DNA of 31,966 nucleotides from a virus (Duplodnaviria > Heunggongvirae > Uroviricota > Caudoviricetes > Peduoviridae). The position numbers were made by a program, and so were the translations under genes. The notes below the pieces were generated by a model, which saw only the letters and a list, made by a program, of their open reading frames with translations, ran no database searches and was not told the DNA's origin. Within the stretch, counting starts at the first letter, position 1. Each line of letters begins with the position of its first letter. The stretch lies in the IMG/VR virus record IMGVR_UViG_3300029875_000335. One strand, written 5' to 3'. Positions 1 to 25,415 of the stretch are shown here, one piece after another.

Positions 1-1011
1 TTATAACGTCACTCCGCCTTTTAGTGGATTCAGAGCGACGGCATTTTGCAGATAGTCAGGCGCAAGGTGCGCATAGGCCATCGTCTGCTGAATGCTCGCA
101 TGTCCCAGAATCTGTTGCAGTGCGATTATATTGCCCCCATTCATCATGAAATGGCTTGCGAATGTATGTCGCAGGATGTGGGTTGCCTGATTGGGTGGTA
201 TATCAGGTTTCACTCTGCGTAAAATCCCGCAAAATTTCTCATAATCAACTTTGAATAATTTGGCGCTGGCCTCCTCTTTAACTTTTTTCTCCAGTTCCTC
301 AGAAATCGGCACGGTTCGCTTTTTACCGTTTTTGGTTTTCAGGAAGGTAACCCTGCAATTTGTAATCTGTGCTGGTTTTAGCGTGGCAACTTCCGTCCAT
401 CTTCCTCCAGTGCTCAGACATAAAAGCGCGACAAGTAAGTCATCACCAGCCAAAACATTTAACAGTTTTTCGATTTCTGCTTTTTCCAGGAACGTCATTT
501 CAGGGTTGGCCTCCGCCAGTGGCGGCAGTCCGTGAATTGGGTGTTGCCCGGAAAATTCATCCAATTGAATTAATTTTGTGAACATGCCGGATAATCGGTA
601 TATGTCACGGTTTATCGTTGCGGCACTGATACCATCACGTAGTCGCATGGAACGATAATCCATCAAAGCCCTTTTGCTCATCCTGCTCACTGGTATATCA
701 CCTATGCCGCTGATGGTTTTGAGTAGATGATTAAACTCTTTTGTTCCATGCTCGTGGTTTTGCCCGTGATATTTCCACCAGATGTCCAGCAACTCACTCA
801 AAGTCCGGCGGTCTGCTCGCTGGCCTCCCCATTCTTTCTGACTGGCATTGGCGATTGTGTATCGCTCAAATGCTAGTGCTTCAGCTTTTCTTTCGAATTT
901 CCTGCGGATGCGTTTTCCGTCGCGACCGCGAGGTCTAATGTCCACTTCATAGCGACCATCATCGAGCTTCTTAATTGCCATAAGAAAGCCCTCCGGCGCT
1001 GTATTCACCAT
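1..1011 (-). CDS. int: Tyrosine integrase (P2 Int-like)
   Basis: 336-aa ORF with the C-terminal catalytic region typical of tyrosine recombinases (HILRHTFASHF...LGH...YAH) and an N-terminus MAIKKLDDGRYEVDIRP as I recall for P2 Int. An internal ATG at 981 has a better GGAGG RBS and may be the true start. Confidence 0.9.
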   Translation of the reverse strand: MVNTAPEGFLMAIKKLDDGRYEVDIRPRGRDGKRIRRKFERKAEALAFERYTIANASQKEWGGQRADRRTLSELLDIWWKYHGQNHEHGTKEFNHLLKTISGIGDIPVSRMSKRALMDYRSMRLRDGISAATINRDIYRLSGMFTKLIQLDEFSGQHPIHGLPPLAEANPEMTFLEKAEIEKLLNVLAGDDLLVALLCLSTGGRWTEVATLKPAQITNCRVTFLKTKNGKKRTVPISEELEKKVKEEASAKLFKVDYEKFCGILRRVKPDIPPNQATHILRHTFASHFMMNGGNIIALQQILGHASIQQTMAYAHLAPDYLQNAVALNPLKGGVTL

Positions 1012-1926: not shown

Positions 1927-2423
1927 CAGTGATGACGCTTAATCTCGTTGAAAAACAGCCAGCAGCTATGCGCCGGATAATTGGTAAGCATCTGGCCGTC
2001 CCTCGCTGGCAGGATACATGTGATTATTATAATCAGATGATGGAACGCGAACGGCTAACGGTTTGCTTTCATGCGCAGTTAAAACAACGTCATGCAACGA
2101 TGCGTTTTGAAGAAATGAACGACGTCGAACGTGAACGGCTGGTTTGTGCAATTGATGAATTGCGTGGGGCATTCTCAAAACGCCGTCAGGTTGGCGCAAG
2201 TGAGTATGCATATATTAGTTTTTTAACAGTCAGTCAGCGTCGTACTTTATTTATGCATGCCGGATTGACTGAAAAAGAATTCAACCAGCCATACTGGCGC
2301 ATTAATGAAGAATCATGTTACTGGCGTGATGCTTTATTCCGTGCATTACGTGAATTATTCAGTCTGTTTGAGTATGCACCGACAATTCTGACGTCGGTAA
2401 AACCAGAGCAATATCTGCATTAA
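1923..2423 (+). CDS. B: Replication protein B (helicase-loader-like)
   Basis: 166-aa ORF, same length and position as P2 gpB, preceded by a GGAG RBS. Confidence 0.65.
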   Translation: MTVMTLNLVEKQPAAMRRIIGKHLAVPRWQDTCDYYNQMMERERLTVCFHAQLKQRHATMRFEEMNDVERERLVCAIDELRGAFSKRRQVGASEYAYISFLTVSQRRTLFMHAGLTEKEFNQPYWRINEESCYWRDALFRALRELFSLFEYAPTILTSVKPEQYLH

Positions 2424-2486
2424 GTAATTAACCAGAGTTTTTAACGCACTTAATTGTGCGGGGCTTCTTTTTGCCTGGAGAAAGTC

Positions 2487-2711
2487 ATGCATACAGTTTC
2501 TGAAAATCAGTGCGGTAAATACGCATTACTGCTGCAACAGGCCAGAACCGAAGCACAGGCCGACGCAGCGACGCGCTTTTCTTCTCATCTTGACGCCATG
2601 ATTCGCCACATCACAAAGGCGGAGTTATCCCGCGTGGAGATAGTCGAGCTGCTCAGTCAGGAGTCGGAAAAATTTCACAATATCGGATTGTCTCGCGGGG
2701 AGGTGCTTTGA
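2487..2711 (+). CDS. Early-operon hypothetical protein
   Basis: 74-aa ORF from the ATG at 2487 (GGAG RBS); stop overlaps the next start. Confidence 0.5.
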
Positions 2712-3237: not shown

Positions 3238-3509
3238 GTATTCGTATTGAAATTGGCGAACGTTATGTCGTTACCAGTGACAGCTTTCAGTTTATTCTCC
3301 ACGAGAAAAAGAGAGCGGAAAGCGGTAAAAACGCCGGTCAGGAATGGCTGGCGGTGGTTGGTTATTACCCGAAATTAAGCCAGCTCGTTTCCGGCCTGAT
3401 GCATCACGATATTCTGACCGGAAGCGCAACGTCTTTTGCTGATTTAAACGCGCAGGTTGAGCAACTCAGCAAGCGTTGTTCAGAGGCTTTTGGCTCATAT
3501 GGCCGTTAA
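3234..3509 (+). CDS. Early-operon hypothetical protein
   Basis: 91-aa ORF; ATGA overlap with the upstream gene; its stop overlaps the start of A. Confidence 0.5.
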   Translation: MSIRIEIGERYVVTSDSFQFILHEKKRAESGKNAGQEWLAVVGYYPKLSQLVSGLMHHDILTGSATSFADLNAQVEQLSKRCSEAFGSYGR

Positions 3510-5781
3510 AGCCTCCGGGCGTTTTGTCCCTCCGTCAGCATTTGCCGCAGGCACCGGTGAGACGTTTACCGGTGCTTATGCATGGAACGCGCCACGCGAG
3601 GCCGTCGGGCGCGAAAGACCCCTTACACGTGACGAGATGCGTCAGGTGCAAGGTGTTTTATCCACGATTAATCGCCTGCCTTACTTTTTGCGCTCGCTGT
3701 TTACTTCACGCTATGACTACATCCGGCGCAATAAAAGCCCGGTGCACGGGTTTTATTTCCTCACATCCACTTTTCAGCGTCGTTTATGGCCGCGCATTGA
3801 GCGCGTTAATCAGCGCCATGAAATGAACACCGACGCGTCGTTGCTGTTTCTGGCAGAGCGTGACCACTATGCGCGCCTGCCGGGAATGAATGACAAGGAG
3901 CTGAAAAAGTTTGCCGCCCGTATCTCATCGCAGCTTTTCATGATGTATGAGGAACTCAGCGATGCCTGGGTGGATGCGCATGGCGAAAAAGAATCACTGT
4001 TTACGGATGAGGCTCAGGCTCACCTGTATGGTCATGTTGCTGGCGCTGCACGAGCTTTCAATATTTCCCCTCTCTACTGGAAAAAATACCGTAAAGGACA
4101 GATGACCACGAGGCAGGCTTATTCTGCCATTGCCCGTCTGTTTAACGATGAGTGGTGGACTCATCAGCTTAAAGGCCAGCGTATGCGCTGGCATGAGGCG
4201 TTACTGATTGCTGTCGGGGAGGTCAATAAAGACCGTTCTCCTTATGCCAGTAAACATGCCATTCGTGATGTGCGTGCGCGCCGCCAGGCAAATCTGGAGT
4301 TTCTTAAATCATGTGACCTTGAAAACAGGGAAACCGGCGAGCGCATCGACCTTATCAGTAAGGTGATGGGCAGTATTTCTAATCCTGAAATTCGCCGGAT
4401 GGAGCTGATGAACACCATTGCCGGTATTGAGCGTTACGCCGCCGCAGAGGGTGATGTGGGGATGTTTATCACGCTGACCACGCCGTCAAAGTATCACCCG
4501 ACACGTCAGGTCGGAAAAGGAGAAAGTAAAACCGTCCAGCTTAATCACGGCTGGAACGATGAGGCATTTAATCCAAAGGATGCGCAGCGTTATCTCTGCC
4601 GCATCTGGAGCCTGATGCGCACGGCATTCAAGGATAATGATTTACAGGTCTACGGTTTGCGTGTCGTCGAGCCCCACCACGACGGAACGCCGCACTGGCA
4701 TATGATGCTTTTTTGTCATCCACGCCAGCGTAACCAGATTATCGAAATCATGCGTCGCTATGCGCTCAAAGAGGATGGTGACGAAAGAGGAGCCGCGCGA
4801 AACCGTTTTCAGGCAAAGCACCTTAACCGGGGCGGTGCTGCGGGATATATCGCGAAATACATTTCAAAAAACATCGACGGCTATGCACTGGATGGTCAGC
4901 TCGATAACGATACCGGCAGGCCGCTGAAAGACACTGCCGCGGCTGTTACCGCATGGGCGTCAACGTGGCGCATTCCGCAATTTAAAACGGTTGGCCTGCC
5001 GACAATGGGGGCTTACCGTGAACTACGCAAATTGCCTCGCGGCGTCAGCATTGCTGATGAGTTTGACGAACGCGTCGAGGCTGCACGCGCTGCCGCAGAC
5101 AGTGGTGATTTTGCGTTGTATATCAGCGCGCAGGGTGGGGCAAATGTTCCGCGCGATTGTCAGACTGTCAGGGTTGCCCGTAGCCCGTCGGATGAAGTTA
5201 ACGAGTACGAGGAAGAAGTCGAGAGAGTGGTCGGCATTTACGCGCCGCATCTCGGCGCGCGTCATATTCATATCACCAGAACGACGGACTGGCGCATTGT
5301 TCCGAAAGTGCCGGTCGTTGAGCCTTTGACTTTAAAAAGCGGCATCGCCGCGCCTCGGAGTCCTGTCAATAACTGTGGAAAGCTCACCGGTGGTGATACT
5401 TCGTTACCGGCTCCCACGCCTTCTGAGCACGCCGCAGCAGTGCTTAATCTGGTTGATGACGGTGTTATCGAATGGAATGACCCGGAGGTCGTGAGGGCGC
5501 TCAGGGGCGCATTAAAACACGGCCTGAGAAGACCAAACCGTCAGCAAAGAAACGGAAGCCCGTTAAAACCGCATGAAATAGCGCCATCGGCCAGACTGAC
5601 CCGGTCGGAAAGAATGCAAATTACCCGTATCCGCGTTGACCTTGCTCAGAACGGTATCAGGCCGCAGCGATGGGAGCTTGAGGCGCTGGCGCGTGGTGCG
5701 ACCGTAAATTACAACGGGAAAAAATTTACGTATCCGGTCGCTGATGAGTGGAGTTGGTTTTATTGTTATTCAGAGCAATAA
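3499..5781 (+). CDS. A: Replication initiation protein A (rolling-circle HUH endonuclease)
   Basis: 760-aa product from the ATG at 3499 (MAVKASGRF...), matching P2 gpA in length; HUH-like motif EPHHDGTPHWHMMLF and active-site tyrosine region GYIAKYISKN. Confidence 0.9.
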   Translation: MAVKASGRFVPPSAFAAGTGETFTGAYAWNAPREAVGRERPLTRDEMRQVQGVLSTINRLPYFLRSLFTSRYDYIRRNKSPVHGFYFLTSTFQRRLWPRIERVNQRHEMNTDASLLFLAERDHYARLPGMNDKELKKFAARISSQLFMMYEELSDAWVDAHGEKESLFTDEAQAHLYGHVAGAARAFNISPLYWKKYRKGQMTTRQAYSAIARLFNDEWWTHQLKGQRMRWHEALLIAVGEVNKDRSPYASKHAIRDVRARRQANLEFLKSCDLENRETGERIDLISKVMGSISNPEIRRMELMNTIAGIERYAAAEGDVGMFITLTTPSKYHPTRQVGKGESKTVQLNHGWNDEAFNPKDAQRYLCRIWSLMRTAFKDNDLQVYGLRVVEPHHDGTPHWHMMLFCHPRQRNQIIEIMRRYALKEDGDERGAARNRFQAKHLNRGGAAGYIAKYISKNIDGYALDGQLDNDTGRPLKDTAAAVTAWASTWRIPQFKTVGLPTMGAYRELRKLPRGVSIADEFDERVEAARAAADSGDFALYISAQGGANVPRDCQTVRVARSPSDEVNEYEEEVERVVGIYAPHLGARHIHITRTTDWRIVPKVPVVEPLTLKSGIAAPRSPVNNCGKLTGGDTSLPAPTPSEHAAAVLNLVDDGVIEWNDPEVVRALRGALKHGLRRPNRQQRNGSPLKPHEIAPSARLTRSERMQITRIRVDLAQNGIRPQRWELEALARGATVNYNGKKFTYPVADEWSWFYCYSEQ

Positions 5782-5853
5782 ACATCTGATTTAATTTGTT
5801 GCATAATAGTAAAATTGCTGTTTATCTGCATGTGTTAACTATTGATAATTATG

Positions 5854-5881
5854 TTGCTAATAATGTGTGCAAATTTATACT
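5854..5881 (+). promoter_or_regulatory. Putative sigma70 promoter for cargo gene 1
   Basis: TTGCTA, 16-nt spacer, TATACT, then AAGGTG RBS 6 nt upstream of the ATG at 5898. Confidence 0.35.
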
Positions 5882-5897
5882 GAAAAAGGTGAAAACG

Positions 5898-7730
5898 ATG
5901 AATGATATCTTTGTTCTTACAAGGGAAGAGCTTGAAACACTAGATTATAGTGTTTTTATGCATATACCAGTTACATTTCATGCACATAAAATAAAAAAAT
6001 ATCTGGATGGGATTGCTGAATCATCAGAAAACCCCAAAGAGAAAAAATTAGCATCTCTTTTTGGTATGCTATATAGTTTCAATTTGCAAGTTGTTAACAA
6101 CACTCCATCATTTGAACCCCAAATGATTTGGGGTAATAAAAGATCAATATTGCCTGAAGATTTTGATGAGCAGGTGAATGACTGTCTTTTATATGTTTCT
6201 CAAAAAATAACCAATCCATTTTTGTTATCAAGAATATATGATGTTGTTTGGTGTAATAATCGGAAAAATAAAGACGTGGCAATTAAAGCAATTGATTCCT
6301 ATGCTGAAATGCTAAATATAGCAATTGAAAAGCTAATAATAAAAAACGAAAGCATGGATGAAAGTGATTTAAATTGCTTTATTTTTGCTCGTGATTATAT
6401 TGCTAGGGCTTTGCACATTAATAAAATGGTCTACCCTAGAAAATCAGAAGGAAACATGGCGATTAAAAATGCCATTCATTCTCTTTATAGTATTCAAAAT
6501 GAAAGATTAATCTTTGAAGGTTTCAATAATTTGACTTGGTTTATGGTGCGTGATTTTGATGGGTATAATCTGCAGTATGCGGAAAATGCTGAGAAGATGG
6601 CTGAGCAGCATAAAGATAAAAAATATTATGATGCTGTAAAATCACTTTATATGACAAGTGCAGTTATTTATGAAAAAAATGGTGAGTATGAACGTGCCAA
6701 GAGATGTAAACTGGCATCTGCAAATATTACTATTAAAGTTGCAACAGATCGACCTGATAATATGGGTAAGATCTCTTGGTTAAGAACAGCTATCTCTGAA
6801 TTAAGACAGTACGGTGGTGATAGCCAACAGATAGAAGATTTAAAGGAACAACTTGCTAATTTGAGAGAAGAAGTAAGGAGTGAATATGTCACTTTAAGCC
6901 ATTCTATTGATATTAGTGACTTGGTTGCTGAAAGTGAAAAAAAACTGACGGGGCGTTCTTTGCCCGATATATTCAAAGTTTTAATGAGTGAAACACCGAT
7001 TGAAAATATTGAAAGCATGAGGGAACAAGTTTTAAAATTATCAGAAAAAAGTTTATTCTCTAGTTTTGTTGGAACAGAAATTAATGATGAGAGTGGGCGT
7101 AAGATATATACAATCCCGCCGTTGGATAATAAAAAAGATATGAGTGATGATGTTGTTATTGATCAATATCTAAGAAATTTCGAGATTACTCATAAGATTT
7201 TTGTAAACGGTGTCTTTGAACCTGCTCGCTATGTACTTTCTCAAGAACATGGCTTGACGTTGTCAACATTCGTTAAATTGGTTACAACTAGTCCAATTGT
7301 CAAGCCGGAGTTTAGGGAGATTTTTAATTTGGGCTTTTACAAATTATGGCAGGGAGATTACATCAGTGCAGCTTATCTTTTAATACCACAAATGGAAGGT
7401 ATGGTTCGTTATTATTATGAGCTTAGCGGAAAGGATGCTACTAGATATTTGGATAAGGGATTAGAGGAGTCAACAAGTATTTCTCAGCTTCTAGATAAAT
7501 GCAGAGATGATTTGGAAAGTATCTTTTCTAAAAATCTTGTTTTGACTATCGATGTTCTTTTTAACAGAAAGAGTGGGGCAACCTTAAGACATAAATTAGC
7601 ACATGGTAATTTATATACTAATGCTTGTTACGATGAAACAACGACATATGCATGCATCCTGATTTTCTTTCTGTGTGCTTATCCTCTCCTACCATATTTT
7701 GATACTGTTTTTGAACAGGGCTCTGTTTGA
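5898..7730 (+). CDS. AT-rich orphan cargo protein at the tin/old locus; candidate anti-phage protein
   Basis: 610-aa ORF between A and cos, visibly low in GC against the backbone; own promoter and RBS; no Walker A P-loop, so not Old-like; R-H-K-L-A-H (R-x4-H) at residues 564-569 (7587..7604). The upstream TTG at 5796 is an unlikely start. Confidence 0.75.
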   Translation: MNDIFVLTREELETLDYSVFMHIPVTFHAHKIKKYLDGIAESSENPKEKKLASLFGMLYSFNLQVVNNTPSFEPQMIWGNKRSILPEDFDEQVNDCLLYVSQKITNPFLLSRIYDVVWCNNRKNKDVAIKAIDSYAEMLNIAIEKLIIKNESMDESDLNCFIFARDYIARALHINKMVYPRKSEGNMAIKNAIHSLYSIQNERLIFEGFNNLTWFMVRDFDGYNLQYAENAEKMAEQHKDKKYYDAVKSLYMTSAVIYEKNGEYERAKRCKLASANITIKVATDRPDNMGKISWLRTAISELRQYGGDSQQIEDLKEQLANLREEVRSEYVTLSHSIDISDLVAESEKKLTGRSLPDIFKVLMSETPIENIESMREQVLKLSEKSLFSSFVGTEINDESGRKIYTIPPLDNKKDMSDDVVIDQYLRNFEITHKIFVNGVFEPARYVLSQEHGLTLSTFVKLVTTSPIVKPEFREIFNLGFYKLWQGDYISAAYLLIPQMEGMVRYYYELSGKDATRYLDKGLEESTSISQLLDKCRDDLESIFSKNLVLTIDVLFNRKSGATLRHKLAHGNLYTNACYDETTTYACILIFFLCAYPLLPYFDTVFEQGSV

Positions 7731-8069: not shown

Positions 8070-9104
8070 TCAGCCGTTGTCAGTGTCCAGTGAGTAGTTT
8101 TTAAAGCGGATGACCTCCTGACCGAGCCAGCCGTTTATCTCGCGGATCCTGTCCTGTAGCGGGATAAGCTCATTGCGGACAAAGACCTTTGCCACTTTCT
8201 CAATATCACCCAGCGACCCGACGTTCTCCGGCTTGCCGCCCATCAACTGAAAGGGGATGCGGTGCGCGTCCAGCAGGTCAGCGGCGCTGGCTTTTTTGAT
8301 ATTAAAAAAATCGTCCTTCGTTGCCACTTCACTGAGCGGGATAATTTTAATGCCGTCGGCTTTCCCCTGCGGAGCATAGAGAAACAGATTTTTAAAGTTG
8401 TTGCGGCCTTTCGACTTGACCATGTTTTCGCGAAGCATTTCGATATCGTTGCGATCCTGCACGGCATCGGTGACGTACATGATATATCCGGCATGAGCGC
8501 CATTTTCGTAATACTTGCGGCGGAACAGCGTGGCCGACTCATTCAGCCAGGCAGAATTAAGGGCGCTGAGATATTCCGGCAGGCCGTACAGCTCCTGATT
8601 AATATCCGGCTCCAGCAGGTGAAACACGGAACCGGGCGCGAAGGCTGTCGGCTCGTTGAAGGACGGCACCCACCAGTAAACATCCTCTTCCACACCACGG
8701 CGGGTATATTTTGCCGGTGAGGTTTCCAGTCTGATGACCTTACCGGTGGTGCTGTAACGCTTTTCCAGAAACGCATTACCGAACACCAGAAAATCCAGCA
8801 CAAAGCGGCTGAAATCCTGCTGGGAAAGCCACGGGTGCGGGATAAACGTTGAAGCCAGAATATTACGTTTGACGTAAATCGGTGAGCTGTGATGCACGGC
8901 AGCACGCAGACTTTTTGCCAGACCGGTAAAGCTGACCGGTGGCTCATACCATCTGCCGTTACTGATGCATTCGACGTAATCCAGAATGTCACGGCGGTCG
9001 AGTACCGGCACTGGCTCACCAAAGGTGAATGCCTCCATTTTCGGGGCGCTGGCGGTCATTTTTTTTGCCGCAGGTTGCGGTGTTTTCCCTTTTTTCTTGC
9101 TCAT
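8070..9104 (-). CDS. Q: Portal protein
   Basis: 344 aa, length and position identical to P2 gpQ; leftward operon with P. Confidence 0.9.
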   Translation of the reverse strand: MSKKKGKTPQPAAKKMTASAPKMEAFTFGEPVPVLDRRDILDYVECISNGRWYEPPVSFTGLAKSLRAAVHHSSPIYVKRNILASTFIPHPWLSQQDFSRFVLDFLVFGNAFLEKRYSTTGKVIRLETSPAKYTRRGVEEDVYWWVPSFNEPTAFAPGSVFHLLEPDINQELYGLPEYLSALNSAWLNESATLFRRKYYENGAHAGYIMYVTDAVQDRNDIEMLRENMVKSKGRNNFKNLFLYAPQGKADGIKIIPLSEVATKDDFFNIKKASAADLLDAHRIPFQLMGGKPENVGSLGDIEKVAKVFVRNELIPLQDRIREINGWLGQEVIRFKNYSLDTDNG

Positions 9105-22481: not shown

Positions 22482-23009
22482 ATGCAGCATTTAAAAAACA
22501 TTAAGTCAGGTAATCCAAAAACAAAAGAACAATATCAGCTAACAAAGAATTTTGATGTTATCTGGTTATGGTCCGAAGACGGAAAAAACTGGTATGAGGA
22601 AGTAAGTAATTTTCAGGAAGACACGATAAAGATTGTTTACGATGAAAATAATATTATTGTCGGCATCACCAGAGATGCTTCAACGCTCAACCCTGAAGGT
22701 TTCAGCGTTGTCGAGGTTCCTGATATTACCGCCAACCGACGTGCTGATGACTCAGGGAAATGGATGTTTAAGGATGGTGCCGTGATTAAGCGGATTTATA
22801 CGGCAGACGAACAGCAACAACAGGCAGAATCACAAAAGGCCGCGTTACTTTCCGAAGCGGAAAGCGTTATTCAGCCACTGGAGCGCGCTGTCAGGCTGAA
22901 CATGGCAACAGATGAGGAGCGTAGCCGACTGGAAGCATGGGAACGCTACAGTGTTCTGGTCAGCCGTGTGGATCCTGCAAATCCTGAATGGCCGGAAATG
23001 CCGCAATAA
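22482..23009 (+). CDS. G: Tail fibre assembly chaperone
   Basis: 175 aa directly after H; C-terminal ...[12 protein letters not shown] typical of tail fibre assembly proteins; matches P2 gpG length. Confidence 0.85.
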
Positions 23010-23398
23010 GTGATATGATCTCTTGTGTTAGTTAACATAGCTATAGTACAGAGTAAGGCCTAATCTGACAGTCCGCTCTGTGCTAGGAGCGGACATTATC
23101 AACATCATGCTATGTTAATGTATAAAGTGAAGATAAATTGATATAATAAGGCCACCATGAATATTTCAGAACCTTGTCAAAAGGTTTGCACATACTCTAG
23201 TCTTGCAATGTGTAGTTGATAGTTCCACTGAGGAGGTTCTTCGACATTCTTTATAAAAATGTACATTTTCATCAATAATAAGAGGTAAAAGGGCTTTAAT
23301 AGTTTTTTGTGGATGTTATGTCCACTCATAAATTTTGAGATAAGTATTGAGTTGAGATAAAGTTAAACTCGTTAAATTCACCTTTAAAAGGATAAAGC

Positions 23399-23926
23399 AT
23401 GGACTGGAAAGATCTTGCATCAACCGCTGTGTATACAGGTATGACTGATGAAAATGAAAACATATGGGGACGTGTTGATGGGGTTGACGTTGCCTTCATA
23501 GGTGCCTTTCTTACTGCGCACTTGAGCCTTGAAAAGTATATTACTGATTATCTTGGATTAAGATATCCTTCGTTAGCTTGGGGTGATGCAAAACTCACAT
23601 TTTCACAAAAAATAGCTTTAATACAACATGAGCCTGCAAAACCCCCTTATGATGAAATATATTTAAGAATAAAAGACTTTAACAGCATAAGAAATAAAAT
23701 CAGTCATCAATTGAATTATCAGATTACGGATAAAGAAAAAAGTAAGTTTGTGGACTTCTACATGAAGATTACTAAAGCCAGTAAAACTAAACCAAATATT
23801 GATATTGATAACATGGCGGATTTGTTGGATTTTTTCGTATCGATGACAAAATCCTATTTTGCTAGTGCTATTTCTTATTATCACTATAATAAAAAGGTTG
23901 CAGGTAAAAGTAATAAAATTGATTAA
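23399..23926 (+). CDS. AT-rich orphan cargo protein at the Z/fun locus; candidate anti-phage / lysogenic-conversion protein
   Basis: 175-aa ORF in a strongly AT-rich island between G and FI; AAGGA RBS; R-N-K-I-S-H (R-N-x3-H) at residues 98-103 (23690..23707). Confidence 0.75.
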   Translation: MDWKDLASTAVYTGMTDENENIWGRVDGVDVAFIGAFLTAHLSLEKYITDYLGLRYPSLAWGDAKLTFSQKIALIQHEPAKPPYDEIYLRIKDFNSIRNKISHQLNYQITDKEKSKFVDFYMKITKASKTKPNIDIDNMADLLDFFVSMTKSYFASAISYYHYNKKVAGKSNKID

Positions 23927-24101
23927 TAAAACTGGACTTAGGGATAATTAATATATAGACGTTCTATCATTTTTAGAGTGTGCGGCAGCTCCATACATTC
24001 ATGCGGATGTCAGCACCTCGCTCAAAGCAGACAGTCAGATTTGATAGCGTTTGGACTATGTAAATAGTCAGTTGGAAAATGAGTGAGTACAAATCAGGAC
24101 A

Positions 24102-24129
24102 GGCGGGCGAATTGCCCGCCTTTTCTTTA
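24102..24129 (+). terminator. Rho-independent terminator upstream of FI
   Basis: Hairpin GGCGGGCGAATTGCCCGCC (24102..24120) followed by TTTTCTTTAT. Confidence 0.6.
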
Positions 24130-24224
24130 TCTGTTGTTTCATCCACTGACCAGCCAGGTCAAATAGCGCCTCATACTCTGCACAACAGAAAATAATTGCA
24201 CCCATTAACCACGGAGTTAAACGG

Positions 24225-25415
24225 ATGAGTGACTATCATCACGGCGTGCAGGTGCTGGAGATTAACGAGGGCACCCGCGTCATTTCCACTGTATCCACGG
24301 CCATTGTCGGCATGGTCTGCACGGCCAGCGATGCGGATGCGGAAACCTTCCCCCTCAATAAACCTGTGCTGATTACCAATGTGCAGAGCGCAATTGCAAA
24401 GGCCGGTAAAAAAGGCACGCTGGCGGCATCGTTGCAGGCCATCGCCGACCAGTCAAAACCGGTCACCGTTGTCGTGCGTGTGGAAGACGGCACCGGCGAC
24501 GACGAGGAAACGAAACTTGCGCAAACCGTTTCCAATATCATCGGCACCACCGACGAAAACGGTCAGTACACCGGACTGAAAGCCCTGCTGGCGGCGGAGT
24601 CGGTAACCGGTGTTAAACCGCGCATTCTCGGTGTGCCGGGACTGGACACCAAAGAGGTTGCCGTCGCACTGGCATCAGTCTGTCAGAAGCTGCGCGCTTT
24701 CGGGTATATCAGCGCATGGGGCTGTAAAACCATTTCCGAGGTGAAAGCCTACCGCCAGAATTTCAGCCAGCGTGAGCTGATGGTCATCTGGCCGGATTTC
24801 CTCGCATGGGATACGGTCACCAGTACTACCGCCACCGCGTATGCCACCGCCCGTGCGCTGGGTCTGCGTGCCAGAATTGACCAGGAGCAGGGCTGGCATA
24901 AAACGCTGTCCAATGTCGGGGTGAACGGTGTTACCGGCATCAGCGCCTCTGTATTCTGGGATTTGCAGGAGTCCGGCACCGATGCTGACCTGCTTAACGA
25001 GTCAGGCGTCACTACGCTGATTCGCCGCGACGGTTTCCGCTTCTGGGGTAACCGTACCTGCTCTGATGACCCGCTGTTCCTCTTTGAAAACTATACCCGC
25101 ACCGCGCAGGTGCTGGCCGACACGATGGCTGAGGCGCACATGTGGGCGGTGGACAAGCCCATCACCGCAACGCTGATTCGCGACATCGTTGACGGCATCA
25201 ATGCCAAATTCCGTGAGCTGAAAACAAACGGCTATATCGTGGATGCGACCTGCTGGTTCAGCGAAGAATCCAACGATGCGGAAACCCTCAAGGCCGGAAA
25301 ACTGTATATCGACTACGACTATACACCGGTACCTCCTCTTGAAAACCTGACCCTGCGCCAGCGTATTACCGATAAATACCTGGCAAATCTGGTCACCTCG
25401 GTTAACAGCAATTAA
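24225..25415 (+). CDS. FI: Tail sheath protein
   Basis: 396 aa, matching P2 gpFI; GGAG RBS. Confidence 0.9.
   Translation: MSDYHHGVQVLEINEGTRVISTVSTAIVGMVCTASDADAETFPLNKPVLITNVQSAIAKAGKKGTLAASLQAIADQSKPVTVVVRVEDGTGDDEETKLAQTVSNIIGTTDENGQYTGLKALLAAESVTGVKPRILGVPGLDTKEVAVALASVCQKLRAFGYISAWGCKTISEVKAYRQNFSQRELMVIWPDFLAWDTVTSTTATAYATARALGLRARIDQEQGWHKTLSNVGVNGVTGISASVFWDLQESGTDADLLNESGVTTLIRRDGFRFWGNRTCSDDPLFLFENYTRTAQVLADTMAEAHMWAVDKPITATLIRDIVDGINAKFRELKTNGYIVDATCWFSEESNDAETLKAGKLYIDYDYTPVPPLENLTLRQRITDKYLANLVTSVNSN

Follow-up and report, generated by a model that had tools for sequence, protein, structure and literature searches.

A small HEPN-fold protein as candidate anti-phage cargo in the second variable hotspot of a P2-like prophage

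What is carried in the AT-rich island between the tail fibre assembly gene G and the tail-sheath gene FI of P2-like prophages, and what might such cargo do? We addressed this question for the IMG/VR record IMGVR_UViG_3300029875_000335, a stretch of 31,966 nt (hereafter the window) that is a P2-like prophage, with int at 1..1011 followed by the early genes, an A-like gene (3457..5781), Q (8070..9104) and the late genes. Its slot between G and FI (start at 24225) contains a gene for a protein of 175 amino acids (aa). The fun locus, as this slot is known in P2, is the second P2 defence hotspot and holds fun and three new PD systems with anti-phage activity (Vassallo et al. 2022, PMC9519451); the study of Rousset et al. 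2022 analysed the A-Q hotspot alone. An earlier reading made from the sequence alone had described an AT-rich island with an orphan gene in a second hotspot for anti-phage cargo. The island, the gene and all coordinates given for them proved correct, and the hotspot assignment is borne out by the published work and by the variable cargo described below. We consider it fairly probable that the 175-aa protein is a standalone HEPN endoribonuclease, carried as exchangeable cargo of the Z/fun slot and acting as a one-gene abortive-infection (Abi) defence against competing phages.

The 175-aa protein and its HEPN signature

The 175-aa open reading frame is a real gene under purifying selection, because comparison with seven homologues gives a ratio of nonsynonymous to synonymous substitution rates (dN/dS) of 0.10-0.15, 24 homologue clusters with 58-99% identity came out of a search of 5.8 billion proteins, the exact protein (WP_001554309.1) occurs on 727 contigs and the motif R98-N-K-I-S-H103 is invariant across the close family. 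All source-named clusters among the 24 belong to the Enterobacterales. The frame starts with ATG, 6 nt downstream of an AAGGA Shine-Dalgarno sequence (23388-23392). The gene is no orphan either: searching the family profile against 1.84 billion representatives returned 367 clusters at E ≤0.001, nearly all of them 140-220 aa long and matched over most of their length. In a superfamily alignment of 79 sequences (19-30% identical to the query), E45 and R98 never vary, and G35, L38, H41, L42, L66, F68, K71, N95, N99 and H103 are conserved at 90% or more. Within the family itself, W3, Y12, I22 and W23 are invariant and mark a strongly conserved N-terminal beta element.

The gene is rare among phage records. 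A tblastn search of 50,697 of them found it solely in ON470601, a phage near-identical to the window; in that record (ON470601.1, our L001 4000-4551) a run of Ns lies inside the gene, and the annotated product consequently has 183 aa with 13 unknown residues that cover the catalytic His. PHROGs places the protein in family 5483 alone, for which no function is given, and a literature search found the accession WP_001554309 in no paper.

HEPN domains are recognised by an Rx4-6H motif with a polar residue after the R, together with a conserved acidic residue in the first helix (Anantharaman et al., PMC3710099). The sequence-only reading had singled out residues 98-103 as such a motif, and this assignment holds, given the invariance across the family and the alignment to HepS described below. 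N99 provides the polar residue and E45 the acidic residue of the first core helix, although the usual Ex3[KR] spacing is not kept, position +4 being T. Two AlphaFold2 monomer models, one from a 21-sequence family alignment (predicted local distance difference test, pLDDT, 75.5) and one from the 79-sequence alignment (pLDDT 91.3, predicted template modelling score 0.82), both place a beta-hairpin at the N terminus and a helical bundle after it, and the predicted bundle corresponds to the all-alpha up-down arrangement of HEPN domains.

The relative that stands out is HepS (STM14_3211; PDB 9OIJ/9OIK) of the Salmonella prophage Gifsy-1, a solo HEPN protein whose over-expression is not toxic (Sargen et al., Nature 2026, PMC13043305). 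Among PDB sequences, HepS (9OIJ) was found by the family profile at E 0.015, and the broader superfamily profile found it at E 3e-7, along with the HEPN domain of Csm6 at E 0.003. In the profile alignment R98 and H103 fall on the catalytic R100 and H105 of HepS (..IRNKYAH..), and the H105A mutant chain of HepS scores lower, as expected. The stretch common to HepS and the 175-aa family exceeds the bare motif and reads N-x-IRNK-x-x-H-x-x-x-Y-x-ITD. The Foldseek comparison proposed by the sequence-only reading gave HepS as the sole match with a probability of 0.9, over 163-165 columns. When a relative was searched against PDB with phmmer, the alignment covered the motif region only, and a HepS fragment gave no match in a tblastn search of the phage collection or in a word-indexed search. 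Individual members of the superfamily also give weak matches to several HEPN families of Pfam (Cthe2314, Csm6_HEPN, MAE_28990, RiboL-PSP, DUF4145 and Abi_2). Taken together, the 175-aa protein very probably has a HEPN fold, and its sequence and models predict with high confidence a domain that looks catalytically competent. HepS is its closest characterised full-length relative, although the 175-aa protein may lie outside the HepS family in the strict sense.

Variable cargo and the hairpins at its edges

To place the gene in its population, the island and its flanks were compared by megablast with 5426 complete E. coli genomes. The flanks were found in 969 of them and the whole island in 49 of these 969; all island copies are chromosomal and 98.9-100% identical. 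About 95% of P2-type hotspots hold other cargo, and the 175-aa gene is therefore dispensable and variable rather than a backbone gene conserved in all relatives. The island is clearly set off by its composition, with a GC content of 0.28-0.37 (23000-24000) vs 0.50-0.60 in the flanking late genes. The AT-rich island thus stands as described earlier, but the whole interval is not cargo: the cargo proper comprises 23098..24006 only (~909 bp), whereas 23010..23097 and everything from 24007 onward is P2 backbone, conserved also where a phage holds different cargo.

In other P2-like phages the same slot is taken by unrelated genes, namely those for the Z/fun-type protein of 299 aa in P2 and Wphi, a SMEK-domain protein, a putative metal-binding protein, a 259-aa protein in L-413C and proteins of 177-181 aa and 373 aa for which no function is given. 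The suggestion that the 175-aa gene might be a divergent fun-type gene is not supported, as neither P2 Z/fun nor any of seven further cargo proteins from the slot is similar to the protein (for Z/fun, E 4 in the best BLASTP hit, and E 0.88 at a negative score in a profile search). Some of the other cargo is of interest in its own right. The 373-aa product in phage vB_EcoM-720R8 (L141 1129-2250) contains a lone RSKALH stretch, and the 177-181 aa products in P24B2 and P22H1 (L142 1192-1725, L143 1161-1706) match neither Pfam nor PADLOC; we regard these three as candidate defence proteins.

An unoccupied G-FI site was found in none of the 5426 complete E. coli genomes, using 22850-23097 joined to 24007-24260 as query, and the smallest cargo of the slot is an HNH endonuclease gene in a gap of ~670 nt (NZ_CP011915). 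The lack of an empty site fits cargo replacement rather than insertion and excision.

The edges of the cargo coincide with the two arms of a 35-nt inverted repeat that are 80% complementary to each other. Each arm contains a 24-nt hairpin resembling repetitive extragenic palindromic (REP) elements, GTCCGCT-N10-AGCGGAC, which occurs in the mirror forms A and B; the exact hairpin pattern of the left arm had 0 matches in 100 shuffles. In comparison with P2, Wphi, 12474III and L-413C, homology is lost at 23093-23098 and picks up again at 24001-24017. The arms were located in eight P2-like phages, which between them carry six types of cargo. In every one of these phages the left arm follows the stop codon of G at a distance of 41-52 nt; the right arm was found in six, where 184-185 nt separate its end from the start of FI. 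In all arms recovered, the outer 10 nt (AATCTGACAG and CTGTCAGATT) make up a perfect inverted repeat. Where 40 of the 2084 matching E. coli records were sampled evenly, right-flank matches start within ~15 nt of the right arm.

The same hairpins occur outside P2. By chance, 596 gigabases should contain the strict B-form pattern about 0.3 times; at least 120 stretches were found, almost all in Enterobacterales, and many of them are B-spacer-A doublets of ~66 nt. A B hairpin lies 92-101 nt after the stop codon of the homologue in five non-P2 loci (Serratia, Pectobacterium, Citrobacter, Superficieibacter and L144), and the DNA shared between the window and the non-P2 loci ends inside the arms or at most 4 nt from them, at 23059 or 23082 on the left and at 24023-24045 on the right. 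Two Serratia genomes differ in the genes between the doublet and the next hairpin. A literature search found the hairpin sequences in no paper.

With breakpoints on the hairpins in the eight P2-like phages as well as at the Serratia, Citrobacter and Superficieibacter loci, one could picture a cassette-exchange system in which A and B hairpins are the junctions and which moves small defence genes among P2 hotspot #2, P4-like satellites and chromosomal islands throughout the Enterobacterales. Each cassette would then run from A to B, and the chromosomal B-spacer-A doublets would be junctions between cassettes, reminiscent of integron attC sites. We consider this reading speculative and rather unlikely: no recombinase, empty site or mechanism for such exchange was identified, and ordinary recombination at dispersed REP-like repeats would explain the same breakpoints. 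Nevertheless, the hairpin-bounded cassette offers a testable handle on cargo swapping at hotspot #2, a step which a survey of P2 and P4 leaves mechanistically open (bioRxiv 10.64898/2026.02.27.708500).

The first P2 hotspot of the window (A-Q) is occupied as well. It holds an AT-rich gene for 644 aa on the plus strand (5796-7730, GC content 0.31-0.35), whose product matches the PADLOC candidate PDC-S39 (E 8.5e-85) and Pfam DUF7380 (E 4.7e-39) and, weakly, DUF4209. The latter is listed as overlapping the C6orf70 HEPN family (Anantharaman 2013, PMC3710099). Both hotspots of the phage therefore seem to carry HEPN-type cargo.

The leader as a gene relic and the homologues elsewhere

The ~390 bp between G and the 175-aa gene had been taken for a plain non-coding leader, possibly forming part of the system. 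Most of this supposed leader is instead the truncated and frameshifted 5′ end of an upstream gene (Table 1). Window 23059-23306 aligns to 2102-2367 of a Superficieibacter locus (L148; 70%, E 5e-30) and window 23082-23215 to 4106-4239 of a Citrobacter locus (L013; 83%, E 3e-35), and in both cases the target covers hairpin A and the 5′ end (in the longer alignment, the first ~180 nt) of an intact gene for 170 aa in the same orientation. This gene matches nothing in Pfam, PADLOC or PDB, and hhalign of the Citrobacter protein against the 175-aa family gave a probability of 1.7%. The product of the gene upstream of the homologue in Pectobacterium (L010 5284-5784), on the other hand, is a genuine paralogue (34% identity to the 175-aa protein, E 1e-7) with the motif MRNKFAH, which suggests that small HEPN-like genes occur in tandem in defence islands.

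Nucleotide homology between the homologue loci and the window starts at 23318-23384, varying by locus; in Serratia and Pectobacterium it begins only 15 nt before the ATG. The leader contains no tandem repeats and has no Rfam match. In E. coli it was found only together with the 175-aa gene (50 genomes), a co-occurrence that is uninformative on function because the copies are nearly identical. As judged from these alignments, the leader is the wreck of a lost neighbouring gene and not a working part of the system. The relic thereby shows directly where "non-coding" DNA in phage hotspots can originate.

Table 1. Features of the G-FI slot in the window, and related sites and homologue contexts in other records (L numbers, with positions in the respective record).
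Feature	Position	Strand	Basis or remark
Gene G (tail fibre assembly)	22482..23009	+	Open reading frame list; product annotated GpG in ON470601 and in further P2-like phages; backbone on the left side of the hotspot
Left arm of 35-nt inverted repeat I1	23062..23096	.	Backbone; hairpin GTCCGCTCTGTGCTAGGAGCGGAC at 23071-23094 (A form); left edge of cargo
Relic of 170-aa upstream gene	23157..23306	+	ATG at 23157, 19-nt deletion, in-frame stop 23217-23219, ~580 nt missing
Short upstream stretch travelling with the 175-aa gene, including ribosome-binding site	23347..23398	+	Nucleotide homology; sequence reading
Standalone HEPN-fold protein, 175 aa	23399..23926	+	RefSeq WP_001554309.1, annotated 'hypothetical protein'
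Codons H41..E45, helix 1	23519..23533	+	E45 corresponds to the conserved acidic position that HEPN domains typically have besides the motif
Codons R98-N-K-I-S-H103, Rx4H HEPN catalytic motif	23690..23707	+	Residues 98-103; family-wide invariance; HepS alignment
3′ untranslated stretch travelling with the 175-aa gene	23927..24006	+	Homology in Serratia, Citrobacter, Superficieibacter and L144 continues to 24023-24045
Right arm of 35-nt inverted repeat	24007..24041	.	Degenerate B-form hairpin GTCAGCACCTCGCTCAAAGCAGAC at 24009-24032; right edge of cargo
Intrinsic-terminator-like hairpin and T run	24101..24130	+	Backbone; sole terminator-like site found between G and FI
Hairpin sites in L008	5865-5888, 6612-6635
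Hairpin sites in L010	5123-5146, 6611-6634, 9682-9705
Hairpin sites in L144	2791-2856, 3610-3633, 4629-4652
Intact upstream 170-aa gene, L013 (Citrobacter)	4181-4693		Motif KKRNWLAH
Intact upstream 170-aa gene, L148 (Superficieibacter)	2194-2706		Motif KKRNWLAH
Context L007-9			Serratia island near TraC
Context L010			Beside DUF2971 and a helix-turn-helix (HTH)-reverse transcriptase pair
Context L011			Other myovirus prophage; directly after tail-fibre gene, beside AbiGi
Contexts L013, L146			P4-type-integrase islands with DUF2971 or DUF4145
Context L015			P4-like satellite; beside DUF4238
Context L017			Prophage; beside lysozyme gene and J-like tail-tip gene
Context L144			Beside Gabija and Mrr nuclease
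Context L148			Beside SIR2-STAND

Comparing 11 genomic contexts, including the P2 slot of the window, we found no neighbouring gene common to all of them, as is usual for a defence gene that works autonomously. With 175 aa and no conserved partner, the protein fits a solo layout (250 aa or less), with the caveat of a small upstream gene in three contexts and its relic in the window.

The 175-aa gene is oriented like the late genes, and nothing resembling a terminator was found between G and its start. It may therefore also be transcribed in the late phase of P2, which would require that the protein is inactive by default. The region 23882-24131 (+) gave a weak full-length Rfam match to the Salmonella Hfq-binding small RNA STnc150 (22.3 bits vs a gathering score of 60; E 0.008 in a small search). 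Its best-aligned parts are the terminator and the backbone just after the right arm; STnc150 may have its origin in the corresponding slot of a P2-like prophage of Salmonella, or the match may be noise.

Function, rival readings and known systems

A defence role of the 175-aa protein is what we consider probable, if not strongly so, on the grounds of its neighbours elsewhere (Gabija and Mrr, SIR2-STAND, DUF4145, DUF4238 in a P4-like satellite, AbiGi, and DUF2971 with a reverse transcriptase), its position as cargo of a published defence hotspot and the precedent of HepS as a solo, auto-inhibited HEPN Abi protein. HepS is a tetramer with misaligned R and H residues; a peptide of the siphovirus J tail-tip protein opens it by completing a beta-sheet with its N and C termini, and the opened enzyme cuts tRNA anticodon loops and aborts the infection (PMC13043305). 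By analogy, a mechanism of this type may be outlined, tentatively and as a possibility short of an even chance in its details. The 175-aa protein would be made constitutively or by read-through and held as an auto-inhibited oligomer. A protein of the infecting phage would bind the oligomer and re-align the R98/H103 sites across the dimer interface, upon which the activated enzyme would cut cellular RNA (in HepS, tRNA anticodon loops), an endoRNase activity that is metal-independent in the HEPN superfamily, and translation and phage growth would stop. A HepS-type protein would be expected to protect at low multiplicity of infection only.

Several observations weigh against a defensive endoribonuclease. 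The protein has no match in Pfam or NCBIfam, and the PADLOC check suggested earlier came out empty, with 0 families at E up to 10 in PADLOC 2.0, which includes the PD-T4, PD-T7 and PD-Lambda systems of Vassallo 2022. In a profile search for named relatives, every relative was annotated as 'hypothetical protein'. Sequence similarity to HepS is limited to ~41 residues around the motif, and the Foldseek match has a template modelling (TM) score of 0.44-0.46 and E 0.27. Promoter-like sites in the interval are not commoner than in shuffled sequence. In three related contexts a second small R-N-x3-H gene lies directly upstream; as this gene is a pseudogene here, the E. coli gene could be the surviving half of a two-gene system. 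Furthermore, neither of two distant superfamily members (~30% identity) lies beside recognisable defence genes, and one of the two (L149 5001-5543; ~33% identity over half of the query) is found in a carbohydrate-utilisation setting, among TonB-receptor, tryptophan-halogenase, GH43 and amylase genes. The inference of defence is therefore limited to the close family, and part of the wider superfamily may be MtlR-like regulators.

Among the alternatives, the pseudogene just mentioned bears on a two-gene HEPN module with the ancestral order hairpin A, 170-aa KKRNWLAH gene, 175-aa gene and hairpin B. Its products would form a hetero-oligomeric nuclease or a pair of toxin and regulator, and the E. 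coli copy would have been rewired to act alone or would be a decaying remnant. The intact 170-aa genes in Citrobacter and Superficieibacter, of which the window leader is the relic, and the Pectobacterium paralogue are in favour of this. However, seven of the 11 contexts have no such upstream gene, the upstream proteins vary between contexts (with the hhalign result for the Citrobacter protein given above), and the 175-aa gene has survived undamaged next to the dead relic, in nearly identical copies, across 49-50 complete E. coli genomes and the 727 contigs, with a low dN/dS; we therefore think it unlikely. The fold itself would also suit a non-catalytic or regulatory protein of the MtlR/YggD type, which binds RNA or a partner and tunes the expression of host or prophage (lysogenic conversion) without killing. 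The 175-aa family argues against this by its invariant Rx4H with N after the R and its invariant acidic residue in helix 1, whereas MtlR proteins keep the motif in only ~60% of members (PMC3710099); no member matches Pfam MtlR, and the close family resides in prophages, satellites and defence islands instead of metabolic operons, which makes a regulator of this kind quite unlikely.

The two remaining alternatives concern the surroundings of the gene. The sequence-only reading had expected a lone HEPN toxin to need an antitoxin or tight regulation, with the leader as part of the system, i.e., an RNA antitoxin or cis-regulatory RNA similar to a type III toxin-antitoxin system, as in AbiF and its non-coding RNA. 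This is largely refuted and very improbable by now: a leader free of tandem repeats and Rfam matches is explained as a relic with start codon, frameshift and deletion, the DNA upstream does not accompany the gene from one genus to another (in Serratia and Pectobacterium similarity reaches back only to window 23384), and HepS demonstrates that auto-inhibition can take the place of a partner in keeping a solo HEPN protein harmless (PMC13043305). A role on the side of the phage, as counter-defence or as a nuclease for host RNA in the lytic cycle of P2 itself rather than in the protection of the lysogen, would agree with the late-gene orientation and the absence of a terminator-like site before the gene, as P2 late transcription could run on to 24101-24130. 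We regard it as improbable, since the homologues in non-phage islands next to Gabija, SIR2-STAND and Mrr and in the hotspot of a P4-like satellite are typical of defence genes, and the gene is dispensable, other cargo occupying most hotspots of this type.

How, then, does the candidate Abi nuclease compare with known systems? It shares with HepS the solo layout, the carriage on a prophage, the context of the motif and the overall fold. It differs in being 37 residues shorter and similar only around the motif (41 residues, profile E 3e-7), and in its location in a tail-gene hotspot of a myovirus, while HepS is encoded in a lambdoid replication/antirepressor region. To MtlR/YggD (PDB 3BRJ, 3C8G, 6KCR) the similarity is one of fold alone: MtlR belongs to mannitol operons and often lacks Rx4-6H, whereas the 175-aa family keeps the motif and is found on mobile elements, and the Pfam MtlR model matched neither the 175-aa protein nor its 79 relatives. 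HEPN-MNT toxins of toxin-antitoxin systems and the Abi proteins with HEPN domains (AbiF/AbiD, AbiA-CTD, AbiU2, AbiV, AbiJ) are set apart by the lack here of an MNT or antitoxin gene, of an RNA repeat antitoxin and of a fused sensor domain; the Pfam models of these families stay below significance for the 175-aa protein. With Z/fun and the PD systems of hotspot #2 it has in common the G-FI slot, the AT-rich composition and the exchangeable single-gene layout. It has no similarity to Z/fun and no PADLOC match, and is thus none of the described systems of the slot.

The kind is therefore known, both as solo HEPN Abi proteins and as cargo of P2 hotspot #2, whereas the 175-aa family is new and unnamed and has no Pfam, NCBIfam or PADLOC model. 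A further reading, linked to cassette exchange at the hairpins and in our view just as speculative, is that of a separate family of solo HEPN sensor-effectors which would respond to a phage component other than that of HepS and would descend from a cassette with two HEPN genes in tandem. Defences in which a single HEPN gene provides both the sensing and the killing were not described until 2026, with HepS as the one example. A family that is unannotated, missed by current defence finders and present in ~1% of complete E. coli genomes (49/5426) therefore bears on how general the HepS principle is and on what a version carried by a myovirus senses.

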